13,984 nt of DNA from a virus (IMGVR_UViG_2703718856_000007:1-13984); one strand, 5' to 3'; positions 1 through 10,690 are shown, numbered from the stretch's first letter. Translations and numbers: made by a program. Notes: generated from the letters alone by a model not told the origin.

Positions 1-1194
1 ATGATCACCGACACAAAGCTCAGGAAGGCGCTCGGCAAGAAAAGAGATGATATCGAGATTATTTCTGATTCGCACGGGCTCAACGCCAGAATCAGCCAGG
101 CCGGAAAAATATCATTTTTCTATCGGTATCGCTGGGCCGGTAAAGCGGTAAAACTCAATGTTGGTGATTATCCTGCAATGAGTATCACCCAGGCAAGAGA
201 GCGTCGCCAACAATTCAGAAACTGGTTAACTGAGGGACTGGATCCGCGAGAGCAGGTGAAGCTGGATAAGCAGACCCGACAGGAAGCGATGTCCGTTGCC
301 GAAGCGTTCAATTACTGGATTGAAAGGCACTGTATCGCTAACGGGCTAGTTAAAGTCGATTACTATCGCCAGGTGTTTGAGAAACATATCGCCGAACCGA
401 TGAAGAATGTCAAAGTCGATAACACAGCGAAAATGCACTGGATCAACGTCTTCGATTCTATAGAAAGCAGGGTGATGGCTCATTACATGCTTTCGCTGTG
501 CAAACGGGCGTTTAGGTTCTGCGTTAACAGAAGTGTGATCGCCTCAAACCCACTCGAGGGATTACTGCCATCTGATGTCGGGCAAAAGCCTAAAAAGAGA
601 ACTCGCAGGATGGACGATGACGATCTGCGCAAAATCTATCAGTGGTTGAAAAGCCATATGTCGATAGAGTCCGTTTTCCTGGTGAAATTTATTATGCTTA
701 CCGGATGCCGTACGGCTGAGATTCGACTTAGTGAGAGATCATGGTTTCGATTGGATGATAATGAGTGGGTCGTGCCTGCGGGCAGTTATAAAACTCGGGT
801 ACATATTAGAAGGGGACTCTCAGACGCCGCCGTTAACCTGGTCAGAAATCACCTCAAGAAAATAAACACCAATCACCTGGTGACTTCACAACGTAAAATT
901 GATGGCGGGATCAAAGATTCGCCCGTTCATTCACCTGTGGCATCCAATTACGCCCGTTCTATTTGGAATGGAACAGGTATGGCAGAGTGGTCGCTTCATG
1001 ATATGAGGCGGACGATAGCCACAAATCTCTCTGAGTTAGGTTGCCCGCCGCACGTAATTGAAAAGCTGCTCGGGCATCAGATGGTGGGGGTTATGGCGCA
1101 TTACAACCTTCATGACTATATCGATGATCAGAAACACTGGCTCCGCGTTTGGCAGAGCCATCTTGAAGAGATCATCGGAGAGCCCTTCAGTTAA
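1..1194 (+). CDS. int: Tyrosine recombinase / phage integrase (P4-type)
   Basis: 397-aa track ORF. N-terminus MITDTKLRK...FFYRYRW resembles the P4-type integrase N-terminal domain; C-terminus has the catalytic box [15 protein letters not shown]...LLGH...AHYNLHDY (H-x-x-R, H, Y) and TGCRTAE (box I Arg). The window starts at its ATG, so the true start could lie upstream. Confidence 0.85.
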
Positions 1195-2834: not shown

Positions 2835-5800
2835 TTATGCCTGAGTACGCAGCGCTTCAAGGCGGCGCAGGTCGAAGTCGTTCAGTTCGTCGGTGTAGTC
2901 AGCAGTGATTGGCGCTGGCCATTCACCTGTGTCGAATCCGGTTGCGATATTGCGCATCGCTTTGCGGTACTCGAGCATACCCAGCTCCAGTAGTTCAGCG
3001 GATGCCTCGATGATGGCGATCCAGTGGTAGTTCTCGTCTTTGTTGACGAAAATCCAGAAGAACTGATCCAGCGCTGCGGTTTCGCAGTACATAGCCGCGC
3101 TCAGGTGATAATCACGTTCAATAATTTCCCGGTGTAGCCTGGCGCGCAGGCTTTCCTGCTTAACATTCCACATGCTGATGGTTTTCAGGTCTGCACCTAT
3201 ACGCACGCCATCCAGGTCGATCTCAAGGTCAGGGCGCACACGAACTTCCAAGCCCGTCTCCTCGTCAAAACCAAAGTAGCTCACCTCAACGGCTCGGCTA
3301 GGGTGGGTCAGCAGCATGCCGGCGGTCGGGTGTGCCAGAAGCGCTTTTTGAATATTCAGCGCGGTGCTCAGCTGCTGGCGGGTGACCAGCACTTTTCCTT
3401 CCGGGTTATCGCGCCAGGCATCCAGCAGTTCGTCGGCAAATACGGCATCTGGTTTGACTGCCTTCACGGCCTGGATCATGTCTGCTTTGGTACCGGACAC
3501 TTTCAGTGGTGCCGGTTTCTGTGCTTCCTGAGCCACAAGGTCAGGGTTGATGATTGCCAACTGCTCCAGCAGCGCGTCACGGCTGCCGCTGGTTTTAACC
3601 GGCGGCGGCAGGGTGGCGTTGTACTCTTTAATGCATGCCTTCATTGCCGTCGCCGTCTGCTTCTGGTCACCATCAATACGCTGGAAGTCAGCTGGCAGCG
3701 CCATATAGTTCTGTGCCGTTTCTTCCAGGTTAGCGCCAAGCGGAACCTGCGGCGGCAGGGTGGCGTTGTACTCTTCCAGTAACACCTTGATGTTGTCGGC
3801 AGACAGCAGCGCCGGCAGGCTGGCATTGTGCTCATCGATAAAGGCGCGCAGGGTCGCGGCCGTTGTGAATGCGCCTTCAGGGATCACCGGTTCAACGCTG
3901 AATTCTGCGTCCAGTAGTTCAGGCTGCAACGCCAGCGCATGCACCAAGTTGCCCATGTCCAGCACCGCTGAGCGCTCTTTGACGATGGTTTTCTCTACGT
4001 GGCGCGCATTGAAGTACATCAGCGAAACGCGCGCATCTTTCACCTGGGTTGAGCTGATGCCGTTGGCGGCGTGGTAAACCTCGTTTGGCAGCCCTTCATA
4101 GCGGCCTGGCTCGAAATAAGCGGGATAAACAACAGCTGGTTCGTCAGATTGCGCTTCTGGCTCGGTTTGTGCTGCAACTGGTTCGGTTTGGCTTACAGAA
4201 TCGCTATTTTTGGCGACAGAATCCGTATTCTGGTCTACATCGTCCTTCTGGCTGGTATCTGACTCTTCACCAGACTCCAGACTGCTTTCGCCTGGCTGTA
4301 CTTCATCACCAGCTTGTTTTTCATCACTGACAGTTTCTTGAACCTGCACATTGCTGGTGGTCTCCGTAGCCTTTTTCGTGCCATGAGTTGCTGAGTTCTG
4401 CAGCAAAGCCGTAACGTCGAATATTCCGTTGCCGACATTTTTAACCAGTTCTTGTTCGACTTTCTGCGGTTGTGCTGCCGCTTCCTCTGCGCGGCGGCGT
4501 GCTCCTTCTTCACGCACGCGTTGCAGGTTCTCTTCGTGAGTGCAGAAGGATTTGCGCGGAGACTCCTTACCTTCAGGTTGGGGAATTTCCTGTGCTGCGG
4601 GTTCAGTCTCATGCAACGGCAATAACTCGACCGCGGAATTGAACGCGGCTGTCATGGTCTGGTTAACAAATTCCAGGTGAGCGACAGGAGTTAAATGAAT
4701 ATTTTCCGGTGCGATACGTACCAGGTTAAAAATAGCCGTGCGGTTAACACCCAGAACGCCTGGCTGATTGCGCAGGATGTTGCTCCATGATTTCCATGGT
4801 TCTTCTTTTTTGGTCACGATTTCTTTAGCGCGACGAAGAATGCTGCCCGGGATCTCGAAGTGGTTGAAGTCCATAGGCAGAAGGGCACACGCAATCTCTA
4901 AATCGAGAGTGTCCAGTGTGTGGTGTGCGTCAGGTCCACGGTCAGTGACGTAACCGCCGTCGGCATTAGTGCCGGAATCAGTACGCTGCACACTACTGAT
5001 GCGATTACCGGCGGCCCATTCGCGAACGAGGATACCGCGGTCGATGTGATCTGTAGCGAACCACAATTTCAAAAACTGGATTAAGGTTGCGAGTTCAGGG
5101 ATTTTTCCATCGACAGGGAAGACTTTCTTAACGGCATTCACGACTTTATGAATATCGTGCTCAATGGCTTTTTTGAATGCTTCCACATTCTCAGCTGCCA
5201 GCAGCAGGTTCTGGACGTACGCGTCATCGGTGTCCATCTCAAGGCGGACAATCTCATTTTTCTGCCCTGCGTCGATGTGATAGAGATATTCACCATCACC
5301 GATGAACTGAGCCAGTACGCGCTGGCGGAATGGCAGGGTGGCAACAACGATCAGGTTCGGTTGCTGTGTCTGCTGGGATTGCTCTTCGGTATCGACTTCA
5401 CCATCAACGACGCCACCTTCTGCCCGGCCGTTCTCGTCGGTCTGGATACCGTCCTCAACAGTGAGATCTTGACCCGTTGTAACGTCAGCAGCGTTGCTGG
5501 TTTCAGTTTTGAGCAACTGCAACTTACCACTGCGCCAGTCTTCTACCAGTTGATTGCGGTCACCGGCATCGGTGTTCACCCAGTCAGACATGAATGCAGC
5601 GATCAATCTTGGTTCGTGCTCTTCGTCTGGTGTGAAAATGTCCTTAACCGCCCGAATCATTTTCCACTCAGCATTCAGGCTGAGTTTGGCGGTCGCGGGC
5701 ACATCGTTCCTTGCCACAAGCAGGCTATGGAGATATGTATTGCCTTCATCCAGTGACATTTCGCTGGCAGCCAACTGCTGCTCTTTAGTGACGTGGGTTT

Positions 5801-6224
5801 GGTATTTATCGTTCATCAGATGGACGGCAAAGCGGACCGCTGGAGTACGGTTTTCAACCGGGACAATTTCGGACGCAGTCGCATCTTCAACGATTACGGT
5901 CGGAGTAGGTGTGTAGGGGGCGTCAACGGAACCAGTAGACACACCAGCGGCTTTTGGCAGCCAGGTGCGCCCATCGTCCTGAAGCTCGTAGCGATCACAC
6001 CAGGTAAAATCAACTTCACCTTCTTTCGGCAGGCCGTCGACAACTGGGAAATCAGTGCGAATCGGTTTGGCGTAGTCCTTACCCCGACCTGTTTCGATAC
6101 CTGCATCTTCCAGCGCAACATCCAGCATCAGATTGGCGCGAGCCTCGGTTTTAGCAGTGAACCAGACCACTGCATCTTGCTTTCCGGATTTCTGAGTGGC
6201 TTTAACCACATTAAAGAATTCCAT
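2835..6224 (-). CDS. recE: Exonuclease VIII (RecE-like), large 1129-aa form
   Basis: N-terminal DFPVVDGLPKEGEVDFTWCDRYEL and REWAAGNRISSVQRTDSGTNADGGYVTDRG closely parallel E. coli Rac RecE motifs (NFPVVNDLPAEGEIDFTW..., [30 protein letters not shown]) as recalled. C-terminal nuclease-like region ends ...GEWP. RBS GAGGAT upstream of the ATG at 6224. Confidence 0.85.
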   Translation of the reverse strand: MEFFNVVKATQKSGKQDAVVWFTAKTEARANLMLDVALEDAGIETGRGKDYAKPIRTDFPVVDGLPKEGEVDFTWCDRYELQDDGRTWLPKAAGVSTGSVDAPYTPTPTVIVEDATASEIVPVENRTPAVRFAVHLMNDKYQTHVTKEQQLAASEMSLDEGNTYLHSLLVARNDVPATAKLSLNAEWKMIRAVKDIFTPDEEHEPRLIAAFMSDWVNTDAGDRNQLVEDWRSGKLQLLKTETSNAADVTTGQDLTVEDGIQTDENGRAEGGVVDGEVDTEEQSQQTQQPNLIVVATLPFRQRVLAQFIGDGEYLYHIDAGQKNEIVRLEMDTDDAYVQNLLLAAENVEAFKKAIEHDIHKVVNAVKKVFPVDGKIPELATLIQFLKLWFATDHIDRGILVREWAAGNRISSVQRTDSGTNADGGYVTDRGPDAHHTLDTLDLEIACALLPMDFNHFEIPGSILRRAKEIVTKKEEPWKSWSNILRNQPGVLGVNRTAIFNLVRIAPENIHLTPVAHLEFVNQTMTAAFNSAVELLPLHETEPAAQEIPQPEGKESPRKSFCTHEENLQRVREEGARRRAEEAAAQPQKVEQELVKNVGNGIFDVTALLQNSATHGTKKATETTSNVQVQETVSDEKQAGDEVQPGESSLESGEESDTSQKDDVDQNTDSVAKNSDSVSQTEPVAAQTEPEAQSDEPAVVYPAYFEPGRYEGLPNEVYHAANGISSTQVKDARVSLMYFNARHVEKTIVKERSAVLDMGNLVHALALQPELLDAEFSVEPVIPEGAFTTAATLRAFIDEHNASLPALLSADNIKVLLEEYNATLPPQVPLGANLEETAQNYMALPADFQRIDGDQKQTATAMKACIKEYNATLPPPVKTSGSRDALLEQLAIINPDLVAQEAQKPAPLKVSGTKADMIQAVKAVKPDAVFADELLDAWRDNPEGKVLVTRQQLSTALNIQKALLAHPTAGMLLTHPSRAVEVSYFGFDEETGLEVRVRPDLEIDLDGVRIGADLKTISMWNVKQESLRARLHREIIERDYHLSAAMYCETAALDQFFWIFVNKDENYHWIAIIEASAELLELGMLEYRKAMRNIATGFDTGEWPAPITADYTDELNDFDLRRLEALRTQA
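3604..3837. repeat. Internal 147-bp-period direct repeats within recE
   Basis: 26-bp identical segments at ~3604-3629 and ~3751-3776 (cggcggcagggtggcgttgtactctt), plus a degenerate third copy at ~3811-3837. On the minus strand they encode three EYNATLPP/EHNASLPA motifs spaced 49 codons apart. Confidence 0.6.
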
Positions 6225-6743: not shown

Positions 6744-6924
6744 TGAACACCCCCGTGAAATGCATAATTTCGACAGCCAGGCCAGCCCAGAAAACCACAC
6801 CAATGGCCAGCGCGATAACCAGTGAGCGAATGCCGTTTCTGCTCATACCGCACCCCAGCACTGAACGCTTACGAATGCGACCAAAGCCAACAACAGAGCC
6901 ACCTTCACCTTGAATCTGTTCCAC
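6736..6924 (-). CDS. Hypothetical small membrane protein, first gene of the leftward operon
   Basis: 62-aa track ORF with a GTG start and GAGG about 7 nt upstream. Contains one hydrophobic segment (LVIALAIGVVFWAGLAVEI). An internal ATG at ~6846 would give a 36-aa version. Weak. Confidence 0.3.
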   Translation of the reverse strand: MEQIQGEGGSVVGFGRIRKRSVLGCGMSRNGIRSLVIALAIGVVFWAGLAVEIMHFTGVFNG

Positions 6925-7021
6925 GCAGGAACCTCATGTTCGCGGATCATCTCTTCACCTTTGCCTTATCGCGGCTAACGGGACGTTTTGACTTCACCCC
7001 GGCGTTGCCGGTGTTGTTTGG

Positions 7022-7110
7022 ATGAGATGATAATAGCAATGAGTATTAACCATAGCAATACGTATTGTTATTATTTGATAGCTATTGCTATTAAATCATT
7101 GATAGCTAAA
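7022..7110 (-). promoter_or_regulatory. OL/PL-like early-left promoter with repressor operator repeats
   Basis: AT-rich region with repeated TAGCAAT/ATTGCTA half-sites, including the perfect 12-bp palindrome CAATACGTATTG (~7054-7065). Minus-strand -35 TTGCTA (7053-7058), 17-bp spacer, -10 TATTAT (7030-7035). The same hexamers and operator motifs recur at the cI-cro intergenic region. Confidence 0.45.
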
Positions 7111-7170
7111 TGAATTTATTTTTTCCTATTGTGCTGTTATGCTCAAAAAAACGCCAAAAAGGGTAGCGCC

Positions 7171-7374
7171 ATGTCGAATGAGGATGAGTTTTTCGCAGAG
7201 ATGCACCCGCAGATTGCGCAGGTCATCGGGATAGCGGTTATGCAGCTGCTGGTTGAGAGGCGCGAGCCATCAAGAGAGGCGCTGATAGAGATGATTCAGG
7301 TGCTGTGGCAGGGTGACCAGGTAGATCTGGCAGTAGAGCTGGCACTGGATGTGCTGATGCTGAGGGAAGAGTAG
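7171..7374 (+). CDS. Small acidic hypothetical protein (67 aa)
   Basis: MSNEDEFFAEMHPQIAQVIGIAVMQLLVERREPSREALIEMIQVLWQGDQVDLAVELALDVLMLREE. GC-rich codon third positions typical of host-adapted coding sequence; AAGGG about 8 nt before the ATG. The track's TTG start at 7129 is less likely. Confidence 0.55.
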   Translation: MSNEDEFFAEMHPQIAQVIGIAVMQLLVERREPSREALIEMIQVLWQGDQVDLAVELALDVLMLREE

Positions 7375-7413: not shown

Positions 7414-8331
7414 CTACCAGTTCGGTAGCTCACGCAAAGAATACTTAGGCTTTCCATTACCTACCTGAGTGCAGAGGAATTTTGCAATAACTTTTTCTCC
7501 GCGGTGATCGTTGATAATGTCTGGATTGTCTATGTAATTACTGATTTTCGCTACAAAAATTGATTTAGATTCATCATGCTCCATAATAAACTCGCATTGA
7601 CGTTTATGAGGAAGAGCTCCCAAGAAGCTAACTTCTAATAACTGCAAATCTTCTTTAACACTATCTTTACTTAGCTTGAGGACCGCTCTTTCAATATCAT
7701 TGATATTGTTTGCAACAAGCGCTTGGTTGTTATGCCTTAAAGTAAAAGTTGCTTTGTTATCAAATAGTATTTGTATAAATCCACGTATTTTATCTAAAGC
7801 TCGGTCATCCAAATCACTAATCGCCTCAGCTAGACCATCATCGTCTCCCCTTATACTCATTTGCAGGATAGATTGAGTCTGGTTCAGAGCTTTTTGAACA
7901 GAAGATTCCTCATCAAAGTTAAGCGGGGCATCTGGCCTAAATTCCTCAAGTGTAAATCCAAAAGAACCTTTGGCTGTTCCAGTAATCATAAGCAAATTAT
8001 TTTCAAGATTTGGAATTTTACCTTTGGCCGGTAATTTCCCTGAAAATGAAGATGCAACATGAGAAACCGCATCATTAAAGGCGTTAACTATTTTGGTTCC
8101 GAAATTTGCAGCTATGCCATATGTACCAAGTACAGGGGCTCCTCTGAATGTTAAAGTGGCTTTAACTGGCGGATGCTCATCGATAACAATATGAGAAATC
8201 TCATCATTTAGCTCATGGAGCCTGCTTTCAAGGCTCATTTTGCCAATAATGTCATCATCAGTAGTGGTTTCTAAAAGAGACAGGATTGAGTCCCGCTCAC
8301 TTAGAACGAACAAGTAATCGTCGCGATTCAT
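7414..8331 (-). CDS. Hypothetical protein B of AT-rich cassette (305 aa), unknown family
   Basis: Long track ORF in a low-GC segment; start ATG overlaps the stop of upstream gene A by 4 nt (ATGA). Hydrophilic, no transmembrane segment, no Walker motif; no family recognised. Confidence 0.75.
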   Translation of the reverse strand: MNRDDYLFVLSERDSILSLLETTTDDDIIGKMSLESRLHELNDEISHIVIDEHPPVKATLTFRGAPVLGTYGIAANFGTKIVNAFNDAVSHVASSFSGKLPAKGKIPNLENNLLMITGTAKGSFGFTLEEFRPDAPLNFDEESSVQKALNQTQSILQMSIRGDDDGLAEAISDLDDRALDKIRGFIQILFDNKATFTLRHNNQALVANNINDIERAVLKLSKDSVKEDLQLLEVSFLGALPHKRQCEFIMEHDESKSIFVAKISNYIDNPDIINDHRGEKVIAKFLCTQVGNGKPKYSLRELPNW

Positions 8332-8915
8332 TGCTCACCTCCTTCTGATAGCATTGTTTCTAAAATGGTTAATGCCTGTTGATCCAGTGTAATATCTAGA
8401 GGAATCTGCAAGAATCCCTTCCATGTAAGATCCCTTCTATGAGACCACATACTGTACCAATATACAGTCCTTTCTACAAGCTGCTCCTTAGAAACGCCCA
8501 GTGACTGGAAGTAAGAATCAACTCTAAACTCTTGCTTTCTCCACTTACCCATATGTGGCACAAACAGATTCGGGTTACGCATAACGACATCTTGCTGCGT
8601 TTCGTTAAACGCCAAATTAAAAAAAGTCACAACATCAATGTCATTTGGCGGACGTTTTTCAATGAGTTCAACATCTTCTATGAAACTACCATCGATCCAT
8701 TGAAAACCATCCGTTAACCCAGTTTTATTAATTTCTTTACGAAATTTGATGAAACCGAGTAAGATCTCGATCCTTTGTGGGCTTGTAGCGTACCGCTCTA
8801 CAAATTTTAATATATCTGTCTTATATGGGGAGCGATAGGCGCTGGTTGGATGCTCCATATCCATTGGTGGGATTACACCAATTTCATTCCAGTTAGGAAT
8901 TTCCTGAATCACCAT
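8328..8915 (-). CDS. Hypothetical protein A of AT-rich cassette (195 aa), possible minimal nucleotidyltransferase-like motif
   Basis: Track ORF with AAGG about 8 nt before the ATG. Candidate own promoter on the minus strand: -35 TTGAAA (8963-8968), 17-bp spacer, -10 TACAAC (8940-8945). Motif WIDGSF-x14-DIDVV is reminiscent of the GS...DxD nucleotidyltransferase signature, though the spacing is atypical. Confidence 0.75.
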   Translation of the reverse strand: MVIQEIPNWNEIGVIPPMDMEHPTSAYRSPYKTDILKFVERYATSPQRIEILLGFIKFRKEINKTGLTDGFQWIDGSFIEDVELIEKRPPNDIDVVTFFNLAFNETQQDVVMRNPNLFVPHMGKWRKQEFRVDSYFQSLGVSKEQLVERTVYWYSMWSHRRDLTWKGFLQIPLDITLDQQALTILETMLSEGGEQ

Positions 8916-9187
8916 GCTGTGGCCTTAAATTTCTTATTGGTTGTAAGAAAAAATGTCATTATTTTCAATGGAGTCATTGATTTTTTTATCGCTTTATCAA
9001 TATGACTTCTCTCGCTCGCTTAATCAGAGCCTTTCTCTGAAATTTCATCAGGGATCGCATAAAATTATTGTTTGCCTCATTCACTGCGCGAGCGAAGCCT
9101 TTCCTTCATTTACTTCTCGTACATGTTATCTAGCCTTCCGCCTGAGTCGTAAATATACAATCATTCCCTGTTGTTTTAGGTGGCTTC

Positions 9188-9217
9188 TTATCCATGCTTC
9201 CTGTACGTCTTCGGCAT
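9188..9217 (-). repeat. Duplicated remnant of the cI 3' end (encodes MPKTYRKHG-stop)
   Basis: 9192-9217 matches 9395-9420 (the real cI terminus, MPQTYRKHG-stop) at 25 of 26 bp, with the stop codon conserved at the same offset; direct repeat 203 bp apart. Confidence 0.5.
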
Positions 9218-9248
9218 TACCAAAAACACATCGAACTACCGGTCTGGC

Positions 9249-9368
9249 TCACTCAAAGTCATCCCGCTCATCCTTCCGCTTGAAGAAAACTTTATCCAGC
9301 CTGAGCACTATCCCAACCAGTCCGATAATCAGCAAAGTAATGAGTATTGGGATAATCAGATCAGACAT
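9249..9368 (-). CDS. Small membrane peptide (39 aa), not in ORF track
   Basis: Manual translation: MSDLIIPILITLLIIGLVGIVLRLDKVFFKRKDERDDFE, an N-terminal hydrophobic helix followed by a charged tail. SD GAGGAAG just upstream of the ATG at 9368. An in-frame ATG at 9398 overlapping the cI stop would give 49 aa. Lies 23 bp downstream of cI, co-oriented. Confidence 0.4.
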   Translation of the reverse strand: MSDLIIPILITLLIIGLVGIVLRLDKVFFKRKDERDDFE

Positions 9369-9390
9369 GCTTCCTCTGCGTGCTAAGGCT

Positions 9391-10089
9391 TTACCCATGC
9401 TTCCTGTACGTCTGCGGCATGCTGCCGATCACCTTGCCGAACACGAAAACACGATTCATTTCGTCTTTCTCGATCGGGTCCCAGGCTGCATAGCTCTTGT
9501 TATCTGAGATAACCAGCAGCTTGTCCTTCATCTTCTGCAGGCGCTTGACGTGAGCAGTGTCGTCGTACAGGAAGGCGTATATCCCGTCGCCGTCGAAGCT
9601 CTTAACGCTGATGTCGACGAACAGCAGATCACCCGGCTCAATCGTGCCGGACATGCTGTCACCCCGGACGTTGATGATCCGGATGTTCTCAGCCTTACGC
9701 CCATCGAACATGTGCCGGGCTTCAGCTGGCTCATACTCAACAGAACGGAGAATCTCGACGAACTCCTGGTTCACGATGCCCGGCCCGGCACTAACCATAA
9801 GGTCCAGCACATCAATCCTGAATGCATCAGTATCCTGGCTTTTAACCTGGGCAGCGCGAGGGAGCTGGCCGTCATCGCGCATCGGTCCATTTCCGGTTGA
9901 TAACCATTCAGACCTGACGCCCAAAGCATTAGCTATCTCGACAATTTTTGTTGAACCCCTGGCGTTTCCACTCACCAGGCGCCAAATGGTTGGCTGAGCA
10001 ATACCTGAGGCCTTCGCAAGCGCCCCTTGTGACATTCCAGCCGAAGCCATGGCCTCGTTTAAACGATCTGCAAGAGTTTCTTTTTTCAT
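9391..10089 (-). CDS. cI: Phage repressor cI-like (HTH plus S24 LexA-type peptidase domain)
   Basis: N-terminal HTH (MSQGALAKASGIAQPTIWRLVSGN); C-terminal S24 autoprotease motifs (GDSM serine, HVKRL lysine; Ala-Gly site in MVSAGPG). Start taken at ATG 10089 (MKKETLADR...), with the candidate PRM -10 immediately upstream, i.e. near-leaderless like lambda cI; the track's 10152 start would overlap the operators. Confidence 0.9.
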   Translation of the reverse strand: MKKETLADRLNEAMASAGMSQGALAKASGIAQPTIWRLVSGNARGSTKIVEIANALGVRSEWLSTGNGPMRDDGQLPRAAQVKSQDTDAFRIDVLDLMVSAGPGIVNQEFVEILRSVEYEPAEARHMFDGRKAENIRIINVRGDSMSGTIEPGDLLFVDISVKSFDGDGIYAFLYDDTAHVKRLQKMKDKLLVISDNKSYAAWDPIEKDEMNRVFVFGKVIGSMPQTYRKHG

Positions 10090-10094
10090 AATCT

Positions 10095-10170
10095 CAAATT
10101 TATACGCTTGCGTATTACTGGTCAAAACACGTTTTGCTATTGCTAAAACCAATACGCATTGCTATTATCA
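10095..10170. promoter_or_regulatory. OR-like divergent promoter/operator region (PRM leftward, PR rightward)
   Basis: PR candidate on plus strand: -35 TTGCTA (10140-10145), 17-bp spacer, -10 TATTAT (10163-10168). PRM candidate on minus strand: -35 TTGACC (10120-10125), -10 TATAAA (10099-10104). Inverted repeats TACGCttGCGTA and CAATACGCATTGCTATT share half-sites with the 7022-7110 region. Confidence 0.5.
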
Positions 10171-10200
10171 TTTTGCACCAATACTTATAGGAATTGGAAC

Positions 10201-10428
10201 ATGACGAACAAAACCATCCAGAAGGCAATTGATATCGCTGGCAGTCAGAAAAAATTGGCCGATCTGTGTGGCGTAGCGCAGCCGACAGTTTGGCGCTGGC
10301 TGCATGGCGGCGGAATTGACGCTCGCTATGTAATGAAAATCGTGTCTGCGACCAACGGCAAGATTAAGGCGGCAGAGATCAGGCCTGACCTTGCTCAGTT
10401 GCTGAGCGCGCATTCACCGGCCGCCTAA
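10201..10428 (+). CDS. cro: Cro-like HTH transcriptional regulator
   Basis: Small ORF divergent from cI with HTH QKKLADLCGVAQPTVWRW. Start taken at ATG 10201 with AGGA about 9 nt upstream; the track's 10159 start lies inside the promoter. Confidence 0.75.
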   Translation: MTNKTIQKAIDIAGSQKKLADLCGVAQPTVWRWLHGGGIDARYVMKIVSATNGKIKAAEIRPDLAQLLSAHSPAA

Positions 10429-10468: not shown

Positions 10469-10690
10469 ATGGAGAGTTCAACGACACGCAACAAAGTGGA
10501 GGCTCGCAGGATAGAAAGCTGGTTACACAGCCAGATAGCTGAACTGGGAACCACGAATATCGCCAAAGTGGCCGGAGTGAATAAGTCGACGGTGAGTCGC
10601 TGGCGGGAAAGTCTGCTGCCGAACATGTCGCTGCTGCTGGCCATCCTGATTTCTAACAGGCCGGGAGAGAAAGGTGATTTTGAAGCATGA
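10469..10690 (+). CDS. cII: cII-like transcriptional activator
   Basis: RNKVEARRIESWLHSQIAELGTTNIAKVAGVNKSTVSRWRESLLPNMSLLLAIL parallels lambda cII (RNEALRIESALLNKIAMLGTEKTAEAVGVDKSQISRWKRDWIPKFSMLLAVL, from memory). SD AGAGGAAG upstream. Confidence 0.8.
   Translation: MESSTTRNKVEARRIESWLHSQIAELGTTNIAKVAGVNKSTVSRWRESLLPNMSLLLAILISNRPGEKGDFEA

Follow-up and report, generated by a model that had tools for sequence, protein, structure and literature searches.

The 13,984-nucleotide stretch of viral DNA analyzed here, to which we refer as the window, contains two AT-rich control regions (7022-7115 and 10097-10194) that flank a gene for a cI-like protein. An initial annotation had proposed that this one repressor governs both early operons, as in lambda OL/OR, which raises the question of whether the two regions carry operators for a single protein and what those operators are. 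Based on the comparisons reported below, we consider it highly probable that the regions are OL/PL (left) and OR/PR/PRM (right) of a lambdoid prophage, at which cI would act on 14-bp operators of the form ATAS-N6-STAT. The sites are present, exceed chance by far, are conserved, and co-vary with the DNA-binding domain of the repressor.

Gene map and mirrored early promoters

Read from its sequence, the whole window is the early and immunity region of a lambdoid (Klebsiella-type) prophage, and the phage records nearest to it are those of Klebsiella temperate phages. An integrase gene (1-1194, plus strand) is followed by a leftward block that encodes RecT (1711-2829) and a RecE-like exonuclease of 1129 aa (2835-6224), with several small ORFs after it. 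The exonuclease is unusually long and features an N-terminal Exonuc_VIII match and a C-terminal PDDEXK-like domain (DUF3799). Close relatives have exo/bet/gam at the recE/recT position, which indicates that the left arm is mosaic. In the right half of the window, cI (232 aa; 9391-10089, minus strand) and cro (75 aa; 10201-10428, plus strand) diverge around a 111-bp intergenic control region, as is characteristic of lambdoid phages, and downstream of cro lie cII (10469-10690) and then replication genes for an O-type protein and a DnaC-like loader. A related prophage of E. coli W21 contains a cI-cro segment identical to that of the window and cassette genes of the same length, and it exhibits the complete lambdoid gene order from int to Q and lysis. 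A search of the window against Rfam returned no known RNA families.

The cI product contains HTH_3 and Peptidase_S24 domains (7.6e-18 for the latter; residues 98-221), and the recognition helix of its N-terminal HTH reads AQPTIWR. The residues for self-cleavage are apparent in the translation (VSA101-G102PG, GDS145M and VK182RL), as in lambdoid repressors, and the Ser-Lys distance of 37 residues is that of LexA. Cro is of the YdaS/Cro type (YdaS_toxin, 4.7e-17; P22_Cro, weak), and its recognition helix, AQPTVWR, is a near-match to that of cI. Such a shared helix would be expected of two proteins that compete for one set of sites, and common sites are in turn expected from it.

Between OL and cI lie a small plus-strand ORF (7171-7374), which is discussed below, and a two-gene cassette (7414-8915) at the position of lambda rexAB. 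The cassette encodes, on the minus strand, a 305-aa protein of family phrog_18731 with no Pfam match (7414-8331) and a 195-aa DUF6932 protein (8328-8915) that matches the PADLOC defence candidate PDC-M63A (2.7e-11). In relatives, the same slot holds RexAB, a ParA-like gene, a 161-aa gene, others, or nothing, and the slot is therefore best seen as a hotspot of variable accessory or defence genes. The adjoining ~475 bp (8916-9390) are without a convincing gene, and the W21 RefSeq annotation is likewise empty there; a 184-aa plus-strand ORF (8953-9507) that runs antisense into cI and lacks a family match is unlikely to be a gene. The 30 nt that end cI (9391-9420) recur at 9188-9217 with 93% identity, and a third, partial copy lies at 9366-9381. 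The repeats border a segment of 200 bp (9189-9390), which phages of the window's immunity type and of another type share at 91-98% and which contains a 49-aa ORF (9249-9398) listed as "hypothetical" in the annotation of one phage. The segment with its flanking repeats has the appearance of a linker or scar of recombination in cassette exchange.

Each control region contains a candidate early promoter. The leftward promoter PL (7058..7030, minus strand) consists of a -35 hexamer TTGCTA (7058-7053), a 17-nt spacer and a -10 hexamer TATTAT (7035-7030), with a predicted transcription start at ~7023. The rightward promoter PR (10140..10168, plus strand) has the same hexamers at 10140-10145 and 10163-10168. 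Exactly two copies of TTGCTA-N17-TATTAT occur in the window, and these are PL and PR, mirrored; with up to one mismatch allowed, 0.02 are expected by chance, and none of 200 shuffles contained two copies. A generic promoter scan also detected both. The sequences around the two promoters are inverted copies of each other over 34 nt (7027-7060 and 10138-10171), with 82% complementarity, and an exact 15-mer, CATTGCTATTATCAT, is common to both arms. Several elements of the initial annotation are thus confirmed outright, namely the identity of the hexamers in the two promoters, the cI-like nature of the protein at 9391-10089, and the position of the small ORF and the cassette between the two operator sets.

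Both promoters are conserved. The -10 and -35 hexamers of PL are kept in 19 distinct relatives, the PR -10 is nearly invariant (TATCAT in locus L011 alone), and the PR -35 follows TTGCnn. A PL-like CATnGCTATTAT is found on the leftward strand beyond cI in every same-immunity locus, and the leftward gene block of these loci is always headed by the PL/OL copy. The first ORFs of the PL transcript, one of 35 aa at 6843-6950 and one of ~36 aa from near 6845, are very small and hydrophobic. A GC hairpin, CCGGCAACGCCGG, occupies 6999-7011, or approximately +13 to +25 of the predicted PL transcript, and is kept across immunity types. The first leftward ORFs, which are small and mostly hydrophobic, gave no Pfam or PHROG match to an N-type antiterminator, and neither such a gene nor a nut site was identified in the PL leader, such that the left operon may depart from lambda in some respects. 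In the related W21 prophage, the Q antiterminator is annotated and N is not.

Definition and placement of the operators

To define the operators, we aligned 19 loci of the same immunity over the region between cI and cro; the loci derive from Raoultella, Citrobacter, Enterobacter, Kluyvera, Huaxiibacter, Yokenella, Scandinavium and Pseudescherichia, from Klebsiella phages and from an E. coli phage. These loci, from ~12 genera, keep both operator sets. The OR alignment revealed conserved blocks between freely varying spacers, and the blocks correspond to 14-bp sites with conserved 4-bp arms around a looser 6-bp centre, ATAS-N6-STAT, or 16 bp with flanks, AATAS-N6-STATT. Among 17 distinct OR sequences, the operator arms are 99.6% conserved, compared with 78% at non-element positions. 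Five exact matches occur in the 14 kb (7033-7046, 7052-7065, 7078-7091, 10102-10115 and 10152-10165), all of them in OL or OR, where 0.39 are expected and none of 200 shuffles gave five, a statistic that is partly circular in that the pattern was derived from the same sequences. Allowing one mismatch adds OR2, 7058-7071, 7102-7115 and 10181-10194.

Since the pattern had been read off these sequences, we tested it on phage ST160 and locus L017, neither of which was used to derive it; these tests lessen the circularity and do not remove it. All four matches in ST160 (7.2 kb; 0.20 expected) fall in OR or OL, as do four of the six in L017. The OL sites of both are paired at 25 bp, like OR1, OR2 and OR3 of the window. 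We also built a weight matrix from the OR sites of relatives only, leaving out the window and two near-identical phages. Outside OR, its best matches in the window are 7052-7065 (19.1 bits), 7033-7046 (17.4 bits) and 7058-7071 (15.2 bits), against a comparison level of 15.3 bits, the 95th percentile of shuffle maxima. Across ~250 kb of relatives, nearly all matches of at least 13 bits lie in OR or OL. An OL1-like 14-mer at 9334-9347 was rejected as an operator because its score of 10.5 bits is below the shuffle range.

Three operators are placed in OR, with centres at 10108.5, 10133.5 and 10158.5, which corresponds to a spacing of 25 + 25 bp. OR3 (10102-10115) is the palindrome ATACGCTTGCGTAT, an exact match to the pattern that lies within the PRM spacer; it is identical in the window and 15 of the 16 tabulated relatives, with one substitution in L015 alone. 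OR2 (10127-10140, minus strand; ACACGTTTTGCTAT, or ATAGCAAAACGTGT on the minus strand) scores 19.5 bits and is kept in relatives, its single mismatch being an arm that reads GTGT in place of STAT. It abuts the -35 hexamers of both PRM and PR, with its centre at approximately -43 from the predicted PRM start. OR1 (10152-10165, minus strand; ATACGCATTGCTAT, or ATAGCAATGCGTAT on the minus strand) is an exact match, likewise kept in relatives, that lies in the PR spacer and overlaps the PR -10. A possible weak fourth site, OR4 (10181-10194, plus strand; ATACTTATAGGAAT), has one mismatch and 10.3 bits and is located downstream of the PR start, where it overlaps the cro ribosome-binding site; its conservation may reflect only constraint on the cro leader and Shine-Dalgarno sequence.

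The candidate maintenance promoter PRM (10125..10097, minus strand) has a -35 of TTGACC (10125-10120) and a -10 of TAAATT (10102-10097). Both hexamers are invariant in the 17 distinct OR sequences, and positions 10090-10096 vary. The start of PRM is predicted at, or 1 nt before, the cI ATG (10089). Only these seven variable bases separate the -10 from the ATG, which leaves no room for a ribosome-binding site, and we therefore predict a leaderless cI mRNA. The lambda PRM transcript is leaderless. As far as the DNA itself can tell, the window thus exhibits the lambdoid arrangement of several operators overlapping PR and a back-to-back maintenance promoter.

On the left, a second operator cluster covers the leftward early promoter beyond cI (7030-7071), which is a further lambdoid trait. 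OL1 (7033-7046, plus strand; ATAGCAATGAGTAT) is an exact match of 17.4 bits that overlaps the PL -10 and spacer and occurs at the same offset in relatives. OL2 (7052-7071) is a composite of two overlapping candidate 14-mers around the perfect palindrome CAATACGTATTG (7056-7067). The register at 7052-7065 is exact, covers the PL -35, lies 19 bp from OL1 and is the higher-scoring one in the window. The register at 7058-7071 has one mismatch and lies 25 bp from OL1; no other register reaches 13 bits in L012 and L014, and at OL2 of ST160 it alone matches ATAS-N6-STAT exactly. OL3 (7078-7091; ATAGCTATTGCTAT) fits the pattern exactly and scores 10.4 bits with the matrix; in many relatives it is the palindrome AATAGCAATTGCTATT, the right arm of which is well conserved and the left arm moderately. 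A possible weak fourth site, OL4 (7102-7115, plus strand; ATAGCTAAATGAAT), has one mismatch and 9.5 bits and lies inside a block, TTGATAGCTAAAnGAATTTA, that is conserved in same-immunity loci. With the OR-derived matrix, OL3, OL4 and OR4 are individually not significant (9.5-10.4 bits); OL3 is weak by this measure, and the case for OL4 and OR4 as operators is suggestive. The distance of OL from the end of cI ranges from 225 to 2576 bp across same-immunity loci because the intervening genes differ.

Co-variation with the repressor and a possible second role for OL

Relatives with a different repressor specificity provide a comparison at the same genomic position. In phage KPC2phi6.1 (L003), the flanks on both sides of OL are identical to those of the window, and the segment corresponding to 7027-7112 is replaced; also replaced are the cI HTH (SQAAIQK instead of AQPTIWR), OR and cro. 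L018 likewise has the same flanks and a different OL, cI HTH, OR and cro. In each of these two loci, the best match to its own OR outside OR is a 30-nt inverted copy of PR at its own OL. Such mirroring of a heteroimmune PR at the corresponding OL indicates that the same design recurs with unrelated sequence. As in lambdoid phages, OL and OR change together with the DNA-binding domain of the repressor. Locus L017 (Superficieibacter electus) combines the window's cI recognition helix with an unrelated Cro (KQPSVSR), and its OR contains an OR1-like site only, plus a different palindrome, ATAGCCTCCGCTAT, at the OR3 position; L017 could serve as a natural test of cI- versus Cro-specific sites.

The initial annotation had based its proposal on repeated TAGCAAT half-sites and palindromes, which are indeed present in both regions, displaced by 1-2 nt from where they had been placed. 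If these elements were themselves the operators, as 12-bp palindromes or half-sites of the form CAAT-N4-ATTG, then the 14-bp form would be over-fit and the OL/OR biology would be unchanged. The half-site ATTGCTAT is confined to the two regions, with four copies (7033, 7052, 7084 and 10158) where 0.43 are expected in the window, and one of 200 shuffles reached four. The 12-mer at 7056-7067 is a perfect palindrome, its counterpart CAATACGCATTG at 10150-10161, within the palindrome CAATACGCATTGCTATT (10150-10166), differs by one base, and yAATAC at OR1 is conserved one or two bases past the 14-mer. However, the 12-mer with three mismatches is not enriched (8 matches compared with 5.0 expected; 20 of 200 shuffles reach 8), and it misses both OL3 and the most conserved block of OR, the invariant ATACGCTTGCGTAT in the PRM spacer. 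Furthermore, the sites of L017 and ST160 (ATAGATAATGCTAT and ATAGCGGAGGCTAT) conform to ATAS-N6-STAT, the centre of which varies, whereas the 12-mer does not describe them. We consequently prefer the 14-bp model and regard a 12-bp operator as unlikely; the TAGCAAT elements are better understood as parts of ATAS-N6-STAT operators, and the ATACGCTTGCGTAT site at PRM is to be added to the OL and OR sites that were listed initially. The broader proposal of one cI-type repressor for both early operons is supported by the OR-only matrix, conservation, co-variation and the near-identity of the cI and Cro recognition helices.

Two other readings concern which protein, if any, uses the sites on the left. 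OL could be a relic copy of PR or a recombination scar that lacks operator function, such that the left operon would be controlled from elsewhere or by something other than cI, and the mosaic nature of the immunity region, with its copies of the cI 3' end (9188-9217 and 9391-9420) and variable cassette, lends this idea some plausibility. Yet 19 distinct sequences, drawn from many genera, retain the copy, with arms and hexamers conserved and spacers variable; it always heads the leftward gene block; and heteroimmune relatives carry at this position other sequence that matches their own OR, all of which makes a relic very improbable. We assign a similarly slight chance to the idea that the shared sites serve mainly Cro or another regulator and that cI uses only a subset, for example in OR. 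L017, in which the same cI helix is paired with a different Cro, lacks the window's OR2 (ACACGTTTTGCTAT) and OR3 (ATACGCTTGCGTAT), as this idea would have it, but L017 does contain ATAS-N6-STAT in both OR and OL despite its unrelated Cro, which suggests that the sites follow cI and not Cro. In the window, shared sites are in any case expected from the helix that cI and Cro have in common.

Under the preferred reading, in which cI acts on 14-bp operators in both regions, we infer, by analogy with lambda, cI binding, activation of PRM, cooperativity, any looping between OL and OR over 3.1 kb, and the transcription start sites. In a lysogen, cI dimers would occupy the operators. Those at OR1 and OR2 would cover the PR spacer, -10 and -35 and thereby keep transcription of cro, cII and the replication genes off, and cI at OR2, which abuts the -35 of the divergent PRM, could activate its own transcription. 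High levels of cI, or Cro, could turn PRM off through OR3 in the PRM spacer. On the left, cI at OL1 and OL2 would cover the PL -10 and -35 and keep the leftward recE/recT early operon off, with OL3 and perhaps OL4 located upstream. Cro, with nearly the same recognition helix, would be expected on the same sites. With Ala101-Gly102, Ser145 and Lys182 in the S24 domain, cI should undergo RecA-stimulated self-cleavage in the SOS response, which would release PL and PR at once and thus both operons together.

Immediately to the right of OL lies the small ORF, which encodes 67 aa of family phrog_3946, function unknown (7171-7374, plus strand). A diverged but alignable family of such ORFs occupies the same position in the window, in ten relatives (L002, L003, L005, L007, L008, L011, L012, L014, L019 and L022) and in ST160. 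The ORF is present at this position in heteroimmune relatives as well, and in ST160 it is unannotated. It adjoins OL in two immunity types, beside several different cassettes. Upstream of it is a candidate extended -10 promoter, TGtTATGCT (7135-7143, plus strand), within a conserved TGnTATGCTCAAAAAAAC (7135-7152) that is kept, amid variable surrounding sequence, in nearly all of the 12 loci examined, which represent two immunity types; in L018, which is more divergent, CATGCTCAAGAAAAC alone remains. A rightward promoter inside OL (TTAACC-N17-TATTAT, 7046-7074) might also drive the ORF, but its -35 is unconserved, its TGnTATTAA overlaps OL2, and the candidate at 7135-7143 is the better conserved of the two. 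We also dropped a leftward terminator at 7150-7170, which would be the equivalent of lambda tIMM, because the hairpin is weak (-9.1 kcal/mol, z -1.4), its stem is unconserved in relatives, and a rightward promoter is the better reading of the conserved TATGCTCAAAAAAAC.

The OL4 block, TTGATAGC..GAAT (7099-7115), lies upstream of the -10 of the small-ORF promoter at a constant distance of 37-38 nt, and the sequence in between varies. The centre of OL4 is at approximately -41.5 relative to this promoter, which is the position of lambda cI when it activates PRM from OR2. It is conceivable, although on balance doubtful, that OL is a two-way control region like OR, in which OL4 regulates the conserved rightward promoter of the small ORF. 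If so, the repressor would switch a conserved small gene on or off from OL, and the cassette would be bracketed by two inward-facing, repressor-controlled promoters, PRM on the right and the small-ORF promoter on the left.

Comparison with known immunity systems

The immunity (immC) type of the window is that of the C2 repressors of the Salmonella P22-like phages ST104, SE1 and ST160 and of E. coli lambdoids such as PhiR30_1, Perceval and Lambda_4C10. Residues 1-74 of the repressor are 86.5% identical to the ST104/SE1/ST160 type, and the HTH matches except for one Ile/Val difference (MSQGALAKASG[I/V]AQPTIWRL), with the recognition helix AQPTIWR identical. An N-terminal identity of 92% serves as a rule of thumb for the same immunity specificity (PMC2629481); because 86.5% falls below this value, homoimmunity with these phages is no more than likely. 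ST160 shares the OR3, OR2, OR1, PRM and PR elements of the window, its OR containing ATACGCTTGCGTAT, ACACGTTTTGCTAT and ATACTCATTGCTAT, and its OL consists of two sites 25 bp apart followed by a TTGATAGC..GAATTTATTTTT block and a small plus-strand ORF, as in the window. In the window, by contrast, this immunity type belongs to a lambdoid genome of Klebsiella type, and the cassette, the left arm, the C-terminal half of cI and the flanking genes are different from those of ST104, SE1 and ST160.

The ST104 repressor has been listed as a specificity type of its own, without experimental study (Villafane et al., 2008, PMC2629481). Our literature search for the operator strings of this type returned unrelated papers only, and searches on Klebsiella lambdoid operators and on ST64T/SE1/ST160 immunity found no experimental work on it. 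The type occurs widely in Klebsiella, Enterobacter, Citrobacter and P22-like phages of Salmonella, and 719 of 5426 complete E. coli genomes (~13%) contain a cI-cro version with ~75% DNA identity. The immunity type thus appears to be very common and experimentally unstudied. What is new here is the likely binding-site sequence for this type, given as a concrete operator definition (ATAS-N6-STAT, sites 25 bp apart) together with a map of its promoters. In addition, the analysis delimits the variable slot for accessory genes that separates OL from cI, which makes candidate defence cassettes, the DUF6932 pair among them, easier to interpret.

Among solved structures, 434 repressor DNA-binding domains come nearest to the N-terminal domain of cI (E 9e-5), and the resemblance extends to the inferred operator, which like that of 434 (14 bp, ACAA-N6-TTGT) has 4-bp arms and a variable 6-bp centre, and to a recognition helix common to cI and Cro. 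However, the arms (ATAS compared with ACAA in 434) and the helix (QPTIWR compared with QQSIEQ) differ, and sequence similarity is weak. These differences indicate that the likeness is one of design and fold, and that the window does not belong to the 434 immunity type.

The closest parallel in overall layout is lambda. As in lambda, cI and cro diverge around an intergenic region of ~110 bp; three OR operators lie over PR and a back-to-back PRM, with a leaderless cI message predicted; a second set of operators lies over a leftward promoter on the far side of cI, at a distance of kilobases; accessory genes separate cI from OL; the repressor carries a LexA-type domain for self-cleavage; and cII and O/P-type replication genes are located downstream of cro. 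The window differs in that its operators are 14-16 bp ATAS-N6-STAT sites with 25-bp spacing, whereas lambda sites are 17 bp; in that OL and OR are 3.1 kb apart, compared with 2.3 kb in lambda; and in a left operon with recE/recT in place of exo/bet, in which no N or nutL was identified. Taken together, the design is that of the textbook lambda switch, such that no concept is changed, and the one feature that departs from lambda is a conserved small rightward gene beside OL with a candidate promoter of its own.
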